Source: Alkalilimnicola ehrlichii MLHE-1 (GTDB lineage: Bacteria; Pseudomonadota; Gammaproteobacteria; Nitrococcales; Halorhodospiraceae). From it: DNA of 32,000 bases. Below are positions 15,554 through 32,000 of the stretch, one piece after another. Every line of letters begins with the position of its first letter. The first letter of the stretch is position 1. The notes under the pieces are model-generated. The model searched no databases. It worked only from the letters and a program-made list of their open reading frames with translations, and was not told the DNA's origin. The stretch covers positions 2,850,001-2,882,000 of the forward strand of contig NC_008340.1 in assembly GCF_000014785.1 (NCBI RefSeq), in the 5' to 3' direction. Both the position numbers and the translations under genes were made by a program.

Positions 15554-15755
15554 GCCGGCCTGCCGTGCCGGGGCGGGTGGATCGCTGGGGCGACTTATGC
15601 GCACCGAGCAACGCAGCAAAAAGTCGGAAAAAAGGCGCGCCTGTCCGAGCGAAGCGAGTTCGCGCCGCCGACTTTTTGTGAGTAGCGCAGGGCACCCCGA
15701 AGGGGTGCGCATTTGGAGCCCCAGCGATCCACCCGCCCCGGCACGGCAGGCCGGC
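15554..15755 (+). repeat. Nested-palindrome intergenic element, copy 1 (37-bp perfect outer arms at 15554-15590 and 15719-15755)
   Basis: GCCGGCCTGCCGTGCCGGGGCGGGTGGATCGCTGGGG | CGACTTATGCGCACCGAGCAACGCAGC | AAAAAGTCGG | AAAAAAGGCGCGCCTGTCCGAGCGAAGCGAGTTCGCGCCG | CCGACTTTTT | GTGAGTAGCGCAGGGCACCCCGAAGGGGTGCGCATTTGGAG | exact reverse complement of the first arm. It lies between the divergent plsY and folB genes. Confidence 0.9.
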
Positions 15756-15863
15756 ACCCCGAAGGGGTGCACAATAACGGGACGCTAGCAAACGTGGTCC
15801 GCACGATTTGGCGCACTAACCGCAACTCGCTATAGTGCCCGCTTTGCACCACCCGGAGCCGTC

Positions 15864-17927: not shown

Positions 17928-18123
17928 GGCGGTGGGCCGACGGGGCCCCATCCGCCAGGGCGACTTTTGCGCACCGAGCATCGCAGCTTTCAGGGGGAAA
18001 AAAGCGCGCGCCTGTCCGAGCGAAGCGAGTTCGCGCGCTCCCCCTGAAAGCGAGAAGCACAGGGGACCCCGAAGGGGTGCGCAATCGGAGCCCAGGCGGA
18101 TGGGGCCCCGTCGGCCCACCGCC
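17928..18123 (+). repeat. Nested-palindrome intergenic element, copy 2 (most divergent; arms 17928-17960 and 18091-18123 with one A:A mismatch)
   Basis: GGCGGTGGGCCGACGGGGCCCCATCCGCCAGGG | CGACTTTTGCGCACCGAGCATCGCAGC | TTTCAGGGGG | AAAAAAGCGCGCGCCTGTCCGAGCGAAGCGAGTTCGCGCGCT | CCCCCTGAAA | GCGAGAAGCACAGGGGACCCCGAAGGGGTGCGCAATCGGAG | reverse-complement arm. It starts 15 nt after the midA-like stop. Confidence 0.9.
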
Positions 18124-25306: not shown

Positions 25307-25376
25307 GTCGCACGGTTTGGTCACGGGATGCTGCGCTTTGGCGGAAGCGAGATCGGGTAATTGGGCTTGAGTGATC

Positions 25377-25498
25377 GGCTCGTTGGCCGGCTGCGATGAG
25401 GCTCGTTGGGCGGGTGCGGTCTGTTGGTTGGGCGACTGCGATCAGGCTCGTTGGGTGGAGCGGTCTGTTGGTTGGGCGACTGCGATGGGGCTCAGGAC
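25377..25498. repeat. Degenerate ~45-bp tandem repeat (about 2.7 units)
   Basis: Units start at 25377 (partial), 25400, 25445 and 25489. Unit sequence: GGCTCGTTGGG(C/T)GG(G/A)(T)GCGGTCTGTTGGTTGGGCGACTGCGAT(C/G)(A/G). The last unit runs into the left arm of the adjacent palindrome. Confidence 0.85.
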
Positions 25499-27975: not shown

Positions 27976-28186
27976 TCGAGTGTCGGGCGGCCGGGCGGGG
28001 GATCGTCCGCTGGGGCTCCAAATGCGCACCCCCTTCGGGGGTTCCCTGCGCTACTCGGGAAAAATCGGCGCGCGTGAACTCGCTTCGCTCGAACAGGCAC
28101 GCGCTTTTCCCGATTTTTCCCTGCGTTGCTCGGTGCGCATAAGTCGCCCCAGCGGACGATCCCCCGCCCGGCCGCCCGACACTCGA
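27976..28186 (-). repeat. Nested-palindrome intergenic element, copy 3 (inverted orientation; 40-bp perfect arms at 27976-28015 and 28147-28186)
   Basis: The reverse complement reads TCGAGTGTCGGGCGGCCGGGCGGGGGATCGTCCGCTGGGG | CGACTTATGCGCACCGAGCAACGCAGG | GAAAAATCGG | GAAAAGCGCGTGCCTGTTCGAGCGAAGCGAGTTCACGCGCG | CCGATTTTTC | CCGAGTAGCGCAGGGAACCCCCGAAGGGGGTGCGCATTTGGAG | reverse-complement arm. Confidence 0.9.
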
Positions 28187-31431: not shown

Positions 31432-31507
31432 GCACTCCCCCGGTTGCAAGCCAATAATCGGCGCCAGTTTTGCACAGCGCGACGGGGTTTGTCTTATCGG
31501 CCCGGGC

Positions 31508-31721
31508 GGCTGTTGGGACATGCCGGGGAGGGGCGGAGATCGGGATGGGGCGACTTATGCGCACCGAGCAACGCAGCAAAAGAGCGGAAAAAAGGCGCGC
31601 CTGTCCGAGCGAAGCGAGTTCGCGCCGCCGCTCTTTTGCGAGTAGCGCAGGGGACCCCGAAGGGGTGCGCATTCGGAGCCCCATCCCGATCTCCGCCCCT
31701 CCCCGGCATGTCCCAACAGCC
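31508..31721 (+). repeat. Nested-palindrome intergenic element, copy 4 (43-bp perfect arms at 31508-31550 and 31679-31721)
   Basis: GGCTGTTGGGACATGCCGGGGAGGGGCGGAGATCGGGATGGGG | CGACTTATGCGCACCGAGCAACGCAGC | AAAAGAGCGG | AAAAAAGGCGCGCCTGTCCGAGCGAAGCGAGTTCGCGCCG | CCGCTCTTTT | GCGAGTAGCGCAGGGGACCCCGAAGGGGTGCGCATTCGGAG | exact reverse-complement arm. Confidence 0.9.
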
Positions 31722-31728
31722 ACCTTGG

Positions 31729-32000
31729 CTAGCGCCTGACCGAGCCGTTTCGCGGGATCCAGATTCCCCGCTCCGTCGCCACCCCGTGCAGCGGGATATC
31801 CCAGGGGGCCAGGGGCAGCTCCGGGACGTGCTGGAAGGACCAGGCCACACCCAGCAGGCGGGGGTGGGTGCGCCAGCGCCAGCGCCCGAGGAAGGCGAAG
31901 CTGGCATCGTAGAAGCCGCCGCCCATGCCGAGCCGGCCGCCCCGGTGGTCGAACGCCACCAGCGGCGTCAGCACCAAGTCGAGATCCCGGGGGCGCAGTA
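31729..32000 (-). CDS. 5-formyltetrahydrofolate cyclo-ligase (C-terminal part; the 5' end lies beyond the right edge)
   Basis: ..LRPRDLDLVLTPLVAFDHRGGRLGMGGGFYDASF.. is the family's C-terminal motif (G-RLG-GGG-YD). The track 'start' at 31977 is an internal TTG, and the frame stays open to the window edge. Confidence 0.8.
   Translation of the reverse strand, partial: LRPRDLDLVLTPLVAFDHRGGRLGMGGGFYDASFAFLGRWRWRTHPRLLGVAWSFQHVPELPLAPWDIPLHGVATERGIWIPRNGSVRR

Follow-up and report, generated by a model that had tools for sequence, protein, structure and literature searches.

Base-paired G·A motifs in the conserved core of a palindromic intergenic element from Alkalilimnicola ehrlichii

We analysed a stretch of 32,000 nucleotides from Alkalilimnicola ehrlichii MLHE-1 (NC_008340.1, positions 2,850,001 to 2,882,000 of the forward strand; hereafter the window), in which a hairpin-forming element of 196-230 nucleotides (nt) is present in four copies, each of them intergenic. 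The core of the element carries three similar motifs of 12-13 nt, which an earlier prediction had placed in unpaired parts of the fold. Covariation among 39 copies contradicts this: motif 1 pairs with motif 3, and motif 2 folds on itself. The core is thus a three-way junction with three CGAG/CG(C)AG modules and two GNA triloops. With moderate confidence we read the motifs as structural modules of a non-autonomous palindromic DNA element, in which the G·A modules would serve as recognition structures of a folded single strand. The feature noticed in the original prediction is real and important; its paired state and its relation to RAYT transposases were misread.

Pairing of the three motifs

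In copy 4 the motifs were found exactly where they had been reported, with CGAGCAACGCAG at 31565-31576, CGAGCGAAGCGAG at 31606-31618 and CGAGTAGCGCAG at 31639-31650. As pairing partners, motif 1 covers 31564-31576 (CCGAGCAACGCAG) and motif 3 covers 31639-31651 (CGAGTAGCGCAGG), both on the plus strand. The same three sites had been described for copies 1 and 3, which is largely correct, except that the right-hand site of copy 1 is TGAGTAGCGCAG and starts with T instead of C. The altered sites of copy 2 are as described. CGAGNNNCRCAG is present seven times in the window, where 1.35 ± 1.33 occurrences are expected and none of 100 shuffles reached seven, and CGAGCGAAGCGAG is present four times, once per copy, compared with an expectation of 0.13. 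It had been proposed to look for the motif on its own elsewhere; in the window, every instance of CGAGNNNCRCAG and CGAGCGAAGCGAG lies inside a copy of the element.

The halves of each motif explain how the pairing is achieved. Every motif can be divided into a 5' half, CGAGN, and a 3' half, N'CG(C)AG; the two kinds of half pair with each other as C-G, G·A, A·G, G-C and N-N', so that a tandem G·A step arises within 5'-CGAG-3'. Motifs 1 and 3 run antiparallel and pair in both registers, giving a two-fold pseudo-symmetric irregular helix in which each strand has one bulged C and an A·A lies at the centre. Since the two strands of such a helix read equally from 5' to 3', motifs 1 and 3 are alike. 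The similarity claimed for all three motifs is indeed strong between these two; it is weaker between motif 2 and either of them, where the likeness consists of the common 5' half and the common 3' half.

The evidence for this structure comes from 39 distinct copies, in which 91.5% of all cells are paired, compared with 68% in shuffles and 31-43% when the partners are slid by one to three columns. Changes on both sides were found for 21 of the 27 pairs. Position 4 of motif 1 covaries with position 6 of motif 3 (CG in 25 copies, GC in 12, UA in one), and position 6 of motif 1 covaries with position 4 of motif 3 (GC in 24, UA in seven, AU in four, CG in three). These are the sole variable positions of either motif, and 98.7% of their cells are paired. 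Within the window, copies 1, 3 and 4 combine GAGCA[A]CGCAG with GAG[T]AGCGCAG, and copy 2 combines GAGCA[T]CGCAG with GAG[A]AGCACAG. The same covariation is seen in MAFFT alignments. At the non-canonical positions, G·A is present in 39/39 and 37/39 copies and A·G or A·A in 39/39, while the bulged C, one per strand, is found in all 39 copies and the central A·A in 36.

Motif 2 (CGAGC-GAA-GCGAG) forms a mini-hairpin of its own, in which C-G, G·A, A·G, G-C and C-G pairs carry a GAA triloop of the GNA type. Its natural variation, also in copies obtained without the anchor sequence used for searching, is that predicted for a hairpin: the closing pair is C-G in 32 of the 39 copies and U·G in seven, the C-to-T change keeping a wobble with G13, the triloop differs at its middle base alone (GAA or GCA), and the G and A positions are invariant. 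One copy reads GCCGAAGGC, which is a compensated insertion of a base pair. The hairpin that had been noted after the right-hand site is also present (ACCCC-GAA-GGGGT, 31654-31666, plus strand). It is the third arm of the three-way junction, termed P4 here, and lies 3' of motif 3; this arm ends in a C[GNA]G triloop in 16 of 28 distinct copies and contains GCGAAGC in four to five more. In the Alkalilimnicola lineage, the basal stem contributes a fourth G·A step, CGAC/GGAG. The sequence pattern fits GNA triloops, closed by C-G and free at N alone, as well as YGAR steps between Watson-Crick pairs. The geometry of the G·A pairs would follow from their invariance and from the covariation of the pairs that flank them.

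The right-hand motif contains GTAG, the tetranucleotide that had suggested a link to RAYT transposases. In copy 4, the T of this GTAG (T31643) pairs with A31571 of motif 1, and over all copies this T is a variable base-pair partner. GTAG is found in three of the four window copies, with GAAG in copy 2, and is absent in most other lineages, which have GCAG, GAAG or GGAG. Because the T is paired and covarying, the RAYT link is not supported.

The three sites were expected to be the best-conserved positions of the element. This agrees with our data: among 41 distinct copies from several families of gamma- and betaproteobacteria, motif 1 reaches 1.71 and motif 3 reaches 1.47 bits per position, compared with 0.68-0.86 in the stems and the bulge. 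The apical 20-mer around motif 2 has 1.82 bits per position, a value inflated by the anchoring of the scan on this 20-mer. Recognition by a protein is the most plausible cause of this conservation; to that extent the proposed multimeric protein-binding platform is retained, whereas its sites are not single-stranded.

Mobility, arms and setting of the element

Each of the four window sites has an empty counterpart in Alkalispirillum mobile or in metagenomic relatives with 82-86% protein identity. The site of copy 1 is empty in A. mobile, that of copy 2 in A. mobile and in the 86% relative, and those of copies 3 and 4 in the 82% relative. The reverse case was also found, where the 82% relative has a copy between a UPF0149 gene and zapB and the A. 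ehrlichii site is empty. Such presence/absence polymorphism at orthologous sites is a hallmark of MITEs (miniature inverted-repeat transposable elements). In a 91% relative, the gor-prlC site (L133 3236-3313) has a core in the opposite orientation with differing arms, and the contig ends inside the element. Insertion into pre-existing palindromes was considered and rejected, as no palindromes were seen at the empty sites.

The core of about 140 nt (125-150) is 88-99% identical between loci, even between genomes. The outer arms of 30-47 nt show a mean identity of 0.59 between copies, compared with 0.57 ± 0.07 for shuffles, and within one copy they are 80-97% complementary. G outnumbers C in the 5' arm, with runs of G, in 11 of 12 copies. 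The contrast between arms and core is seen in the window copies as well as in L131, L137, L035, L095 and L104; outside the core, the copies of the Alkalilimnicola lineage have just the inner 17-19 nt of the basal stem in common. As the cores are alike and the arms unrelated, it is the core that forms the conserved unit, and each locus makes or acquires a long stem of its own. We know of no standard bacterial transposition mechanism that accounts for near-identical cores inside locus-specific perfect palindromes. Fold-back copying or outward growth by template switching would each explain perfect arms without wobble pairs. At the four window sites, whose flanks are diverged, we found no similarity to suggest that an arm had been copied in inverted form from the target. 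The empty UPF0149-zapB allele contains one arm-like stretch at the right position (p = 0.03, uncorrected), which is suggestive of target copying.

Some further observations concern the assembly of these sites. In a near-identical assembly, GCA_049200435.1 (L140 7763-7951), both arms of copy 3 are kept, the core is absent and a 17-nt poly-C run is present. This state is probably an artefact or mis-assembly, or a deletion at the palindrome centre, and not a clean empty site. Moreover, short-read Logan contigs from this and related genomes (L123-L125, L127-L129, L133-L135) end within about 150 nt of element sites, which indicates that the repeats break assemblies. In practical terms, the elements thus disrupt assemblies made from short reads, and at least one closed genome has them mis-assembled or deleted.

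Copy 4 spans 31500-31729 on the plus strand, with inverted-repeat arms at 31500-31565 and 31664-31729 that are 89% complementary. As RNA, its plus strand folds with -180.3 kcal/mol (z = -15.7), and either strand gives about -180 kcal/mol with a z of about -15. From the outside inwards, the G-rich, locus-specific 5' outer arm (31500-31546) pairs with its C-rich, equally locus-specific counterpart (31683-31729), as seen from the arm comparison. The conserved 5' strand of the basal stem follows (GGGGCGACTTATGCGCA, 31547-31563) and pairs, as read from the sequence, with the conserved 3' strand identified by copy comparison (TGCGCATTCGGAGCCCC, 31666-31682). The 5' strand holds the CGAC/GGAG tandem G·A and a TT/TY mismatch and, one A/T position apart, is invariant in the four window copies; the similar GGCGACTTA...ATGCGC is found in Lachnospiraceae copies. 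Inwards of motif 1, the P2 stem is formed by CAAAAGAGCGG (31577-31587) and CCGCTCTTTTG (31628-31638), assigned by covariation, with compensatory changes in 10 of 12 pairs and all differences between window copies compensated. An asymmetric A/G-rich bulge comes next (AAAAAA, 31588-31593), which is purine-rich and variable in sequence in alignments A2 and A7. The P3 stem (GGCGCG at 31594-31599, pairing with 31621-31626) has compensatory changes in all six pairs. The apical 20-mer TGTCCGAGCGAAGCGAGTTC (31602-31621), kept across phyla, contains the motif 2 mini-hairpin with its GCGAAGC and its closing-pair and triloop variants. All these parts are on the plus strand. The reverse complement of 31547-31565 starts with GGTGCGCATAA, which we take to be identical to the XerC arm of E. 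coli dif. This candidate was set aside as a probable coincidence, being present in the Alkalilimnicola lineage alone and without a XerD arm.

The other copies lie at 15554-15755 (copy 1, plus strand, between plsY on the minus and folB on the plus strand), 17928-18123 (copy 2, plus strand, 3' of a gene for a MidA-type methyltransferase) and 27976-28186 (copy 3, minus strand, between gor and prlC). In orientation to the genes, two window copies are sense, one is antisense and one divergent, copy 4 being antisense to both neighbouring genes. The region is occupied by housekeeping genes (rpoD, dnaG, tsaD, plsY, folB, folK, nfi, ubiD) and also includes genes for a peptidase M3 (termed prlC here), for a pyridine-nucleotide disulphide oxidoreductase (termed gor) and for a protein like formate dehydrogenase; no transposase gene was found in the 32-kb window. 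The MidA-type methyltransferase has 100% identity with the MLHE-1 protein, and assembly GCA_049200435.1 contains the same set of genes. The element is an intergenic insertion in housekeeping DNA without a gene of its own. Next to the end of copy 1, the stretch ACCCCGAAGGGGTGCAC (15756-15772) resembles the P4 hairpin and the start of the basal stem of another copy, and may be the remnant of an older or nested insertion. A tandem repeat with a unit of about 44-45 nt (2.5-3 copies, 88% matches) is located downstream of prlC at 25361-25494.

Related elements in other genomes

An exact-match scan of one genome per bacterial species with the apical 20-mer TGTYCGAGCGAAGCGAGTTC identified at least 120 loci in many phyla. 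Judged by eye among the matches listed, most are at the tip of a hairpin with a stem that varies between loci, and about ten are plain coding-sequence matches. Counted by folding, 105 of 116 loci have at least 15 spanning pairs, a figure without a random-sequence control. Also among the matches listed, the isolate hosts include Marinobacter, Thauera, Variovorax, Stenotrophomonas, Coralloluteibacterium, Halorhodospira, Hydrogenovibrio and Thermoclostridium. Hosts known as metagenome-assembled genomes (MAGs) include Polaromonas, Lachnospiraceae, Porphyromonadaceae, Prevotella, Saccharibacteria, Nitrospira, Gemmatimonadota and Acidobacteriota. The apical mini-hairpin thus has cultured isolates among its hosts in the Proteobacteria and Firmicutes, and is found in MAGs only in the Bacteroidota, Nitrospirota, Gemmatimonadota, Acidobacteriota and bacteria of the candidate phyla radiation (CPR). 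Identical Thauera-type copies together with their flanks are present in bins labelled Bdellovibrionales and Fibrobacteria (L002, L114 and L118 compared with L017). These are likely to be bin contamination, and phylum counts based on MAGs therefore need care.

Motifs 1 and 3, too, persist in copies of the Ectothiorhodospiraceae, Xanthomonadaceae and Burkholderiales. With 25 such copies as its basis, a covariance model gave 102 matches in the retrieved loci, some of them without the exact 20-mer anchor. None of 5,426 complete E. coli genomes has a match, one viral contig has a match, and plasmid matches are essentially restricted to Ralstonia megaplasmids. No linked protein was found when 2,966 open reading frames (ORFs) from 121 loci were compared all-against-all, which gave only spurious read-through ORFs (e.g. 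...ELASLGQ...) and common domain families. The presence of one apical mini-hairpin on top of otherwise unrelated hairpin repeats points to a shared partner, either a mobilising enzyme or a universal host protein.

Two observations on relatives may be added. Versions from beta- and gammaproteobacteria and from Bacteroidota have another conserved module, TTTCTTTGCTTNCTTTCTTTG-loop-CAAAGAAAG.AAGTCGG, with a small GC hairpin after it. This module lies 3' of the element's hairpin (L058, L088, L093, L119, L136, L061), is without a match in Rfam and is missing from the window copies. At the glgB-glgX intergenic site (L136 1160-1660, on the Ralstonia GMI1000 megaplasmid; L143; L142), we found three alleles: one with a small GC hairpin alone, one with a palindrome that is perfect over 68 nt, and one in which a palindrome of about 450 nt holds two inverted copies of the apical-loop hairpin. 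These alleles could represent nested palindromes or successive deletions of the centre.

Nature of the element and comparison with known systems

Several lines of evidence bear on whether the element acts as DNA or as RNA. In tandem gene contexts, 14 copies are co-oriented and 15 anti-oriented with the genes, and convergent intergenic regions are preferred. The variable stems contain 560 G·T pairs on the plus and 659 on the minus strand and hence show no strand bias; in the window, stems have 0-3 G·T per about 85 pairs and are almost purely Watson-Crick. The sole strand-specific wobble is the closing pair of motif 2. A comparison with Rfam 15 gave no real match at the gathering score or at E <= 10, the only matches being spurious ones to long-hairpin miRNAs. 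Neither a consistent orientation nor a general strand preference of G·U pairs in the helices, both expected of structured RNAs, was found. A GC-skew orientation bias (63 vs 38) is weak and, as the copies behind its p of ~0.017 are not independent, is not relied on. The oligonucleotide d(GCGAAGC), in which a C-G pair closes a GNA triloop, is reportedly an exceptionally stable DNA mini-hairpin, as described by Hirao and by Yoshizawa et al. in 1997. The even orientation, the lack of G·T bias, the absence of an Rfam match and the GNA triloops together favour folded single-stranded DNA of the G/A-rich strand.

The functional form would then be one folded strand, the G/A-rich one, and most likely DNA. 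Its three G·A modules and triloops might form a rigid, strand-specific surface that is read by a protein encoded elsewhere, and the two-fold symmetry may suggest a dimeric protein. This protein would move or copy the core, and the locus-specific outer stems would arise later at the DNA level by fold-back copying or template switching. We also entertain a more far-reaching and tentative proposal, which we consider possible but unlikely when taken as a whole, namely an undescribed cross-phyla superfamily of mobile elements that build their own palindromes. What moves would be a core of about 140 nt, folded as a single strand and bearing the near-invariant apical G·A/GNA mini-hairpin TGTYYGAGCGNAGCGAGTTC, to which gamma- and betaproteobacterial members would add the G·A junction with its two-fold symmetry. 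Once inserted, the core might build the locus-specific perfect palindrome around itself through hairpin-primed (fold-back) copying of neighbouring target DNA. The outcome would be an inverted and not a direct target duplication, and the enzyme would be widely distributed.

Several points weigh against a mobile DNA element with G·A recognition modules. No target-site duplication was visible in five comparisons of filled and empty sites, the flanks being too diverged to fix the junctions, and no exact ends of the element could be defined. A mobilising protein was not found in the window or within about 4 kb of the approximately 120 loci examined. The alignment used for the covariation analysis (A9) had been fitted to the model, though its motif columns are of fixed length and the MAFFT alignments agree. 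The G·A geometry is not visible in the sequence as such, nearest-neighbour folding fails to give the G·A structure, and as DNA the core folds no better than its shuffles; because nearest-neighbour rules ignore G·A modules, this folding is uninformative for the core. The gene calls behind the orientation count are heuristic. Tandem G·A steps of the CGAG type are very stable in RNA too, and therefore structure alone cannot separate DNA from RNA. Finally, the apical 20-mer is nearly identical across phyla, which would be expected of a functional RNA, or of a site bound by a universal host protein, more than of an ordinary MITE.

The last two points also speak for an RNA explanation. The core could be a structured non-coding RNA or an RNA-level mobile element, with the G·A modules and the apical hairpin as RNA tertiary or protein-binding motifs, spread via an RNA intermediate or kept for processing, stability or protein sequestration. 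Conserved irregular loops combined with covarying stems are the classic signature of functional RNAs, and tandem G·A pairs in 5'-CGAG-3' are well known for their stability in RNA. Across phyla the apical motif hardly varies, and the U·G pair that closes motif 2 in 7 of 39 copies belongs to the G/A-rich strand only. We nevertheless judge this explanation unlikely. No Rfam family was recovered even at E = 10, the orientation to flanking genes is random, with copy 4 antisense to both neighbours, and reading of the sequence gave no promoter- or terminator-like features, no dedicated scan having been made. Moreover, the variable stems are near-pure Watson-Crick, with wobble pairs lacking strand bias, unlike evolving RNA helices; both tips are GNA triloops and not GNRA or UNCG tetraloops, and the very long, perfect, locus-specific arms point to a process at the DNA level. 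A ubiquitous partner, as suggested by the cross-phyla apical motif, would also be expected if the element were a DNA structural site kept by the host, that is, a cruciform or hairpin for gyrase, integration host factor (IHF), Pol I, a repair nuclease or a nucleoid protein, or an insulator, similar to the bacterial interspersed mosaic elements (BIMEs) that are bound in E. coli. The preference for sites between convergent genes and the two-fold junction helix, as expected for a dimeric partner, would agree with this. However, none of the five examined sites is conserved between relatives at 82-91% protein identity, and individual copies are therefore dispensable. The element is also patchy among genomes, with no match in the 5,426 complete E. 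coli genomes and few on plasmids other than Ralstonia megaplasmids, and we regard a host-kept site as rather improbable.

Two further explanations concern the motifs themselves. According to the original prediction, the element might be of the type of repetitive extragenic palindromes (REPs) or REPINs, mobilised by RAYT, a Y1 HUH transposase, via the GTAG next to P4. In its favour, folded single-stranded DNA is what HUH enzymes act on, the element is a palindrome that is abundant and extragenic, and GTAG lies 7-11 nt upstream of a small hairpin in three of the four window copies. The covariation of the GTAG T with position 6 of motif 1 speaks against it. A cognate RAYT gene, usually bordered by the repeats, would be expected in the genome; neither the window nor the DNA within about 4 kb of the approximately 120 related loci examined showed a Y1 transposase or RAYT gene. 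In REPs, more than 90% of members keep the terminal GTAG/CGTC tag, which stays unpaired, and the palindrome measures 20-40 bp with a stem of 6-13 bp (PMC3733652), which differs from our element in both tag and size. Alkalilimnicola is not named in the main text of this survey (PMC3733652), and our literature search found no paper linking Alkalilimnicola with REPs. Overall, mobilisation by RAYT appears very improbable. It is harder still to accept that the motifs are double-stranded direct-repeat sites (iterons) for a sequence-specific DNA-binding protein, with the hairpin irrelevant, although three similar motifs in direct orientation with spacings of 41 and 33 bp might suggest so. Iterons would be expected to have the same base at corresponding positions; instead, positions 4 and 6 of motif 1 complement positions 6 and 4 of motif 3 with four pair types. 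The stems between the motifs covary, and the motifs are never found outside the fold. Because of the covariation we reject this double-stranded model, to which we assign almost no likelihood.

If the motifs are indeed structural modules of a mobile DNA element, they are not loose single strands but a compact recognition architecture of three tandem G·A modules and two GNA triloops, and would provide a concrete model for the recognition of a very small non-coding element. The pattern of core and arms also bears on the origin and persistence of long palindromes in bacterial chromosomes.

Full-text literature searches with the motif strings gave nothing relevant, and those on MITEs and REPs found only REP/RAYT papers, whose features differ from those of the element. 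REPs and REPINs, too, are non-autonomous palindromes that abound outside genes. They are believed to function as folded single-stranded DNA, have conserved non-Watson-Crick features and differ in presence or absence between relatives. They are much smaller, with 20-40 nt for a REP and about 100 nt for a REPIN, whereas our element has about 200-235 nt (196-230 nt in the window copies) around a structured core of 137-140 nt. In the latter, moreover, the centre and not the arms is conserved, GTAG is paired and variable, and a three-way junction and a cross-phyla apical motif are present. Bacterial MITEs and palindromic repeats such as Correia/NEMIS, ERIC, RUP, BOX and bcr1 share its size range, intergenic location, hairpin potential, non-coding nature and insertion polymorphism. 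MITEs, however, have conserved terminal inverted repeats that match a parent insertion sequence (IS) as well as direct target-site duplications, while the arms of our element are locus-specific rather than shared, its centre is conserved, and neither a parent IS nor a target-site duplication was found.

Structurally, the closest counterparts are biophysical motifs. GNA-triloop mini-hairpins and (PyGAPu)2 tandem sheared G·A motifs are said to have been described by Hirao, Yoshizawa, Chou and Reid. Motif 2 contains GCGAAGC, and its natural variation affects the N of GNA and the C/U closing base; the modules of the element place 5'-CGAG-3' opposite 5'-CG(C)AG-3', as in tandem sheared G·A motifs. 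In contrast to the element, these are not genetic elements, and their geometry is predicted for the element. The inverted terminal repeat of the parvovirus adeno-associated virus (AAV) offers an analogy, without any claim of homology, in being a hairpin with a three-way junction. It is bound by the HUH protein Rep at GAGC-type tetranucleotide repeats of the stem, with the tip as a second contact, and hairpin-primed copying yields its flip and flop orientations; it is, however, a viral telomere of eukaryotic cells. The attC sites of integrons and attP of CTX-phi resemble the element in that structure is kept over stem sequence, with extrahelical bases, an internal bubble and strand specificity. 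In attC, conservation is found in boxes at the stem base, the R''/R' core sites (RYYYAAC ... GTTRRRY), and variation in the centre, and our element shows the opposite arrangement; reading of the sequence showed no GTTRRRY at the stem base, and the neighbours are housekeeping genes without an integrase or cassette context. The element is best filed as a variant of the palindromic intergenic repeats, and an unusual one, having a structured conserved centre, locus-specific arms, G·A modules and a tip that recurs across phyla.

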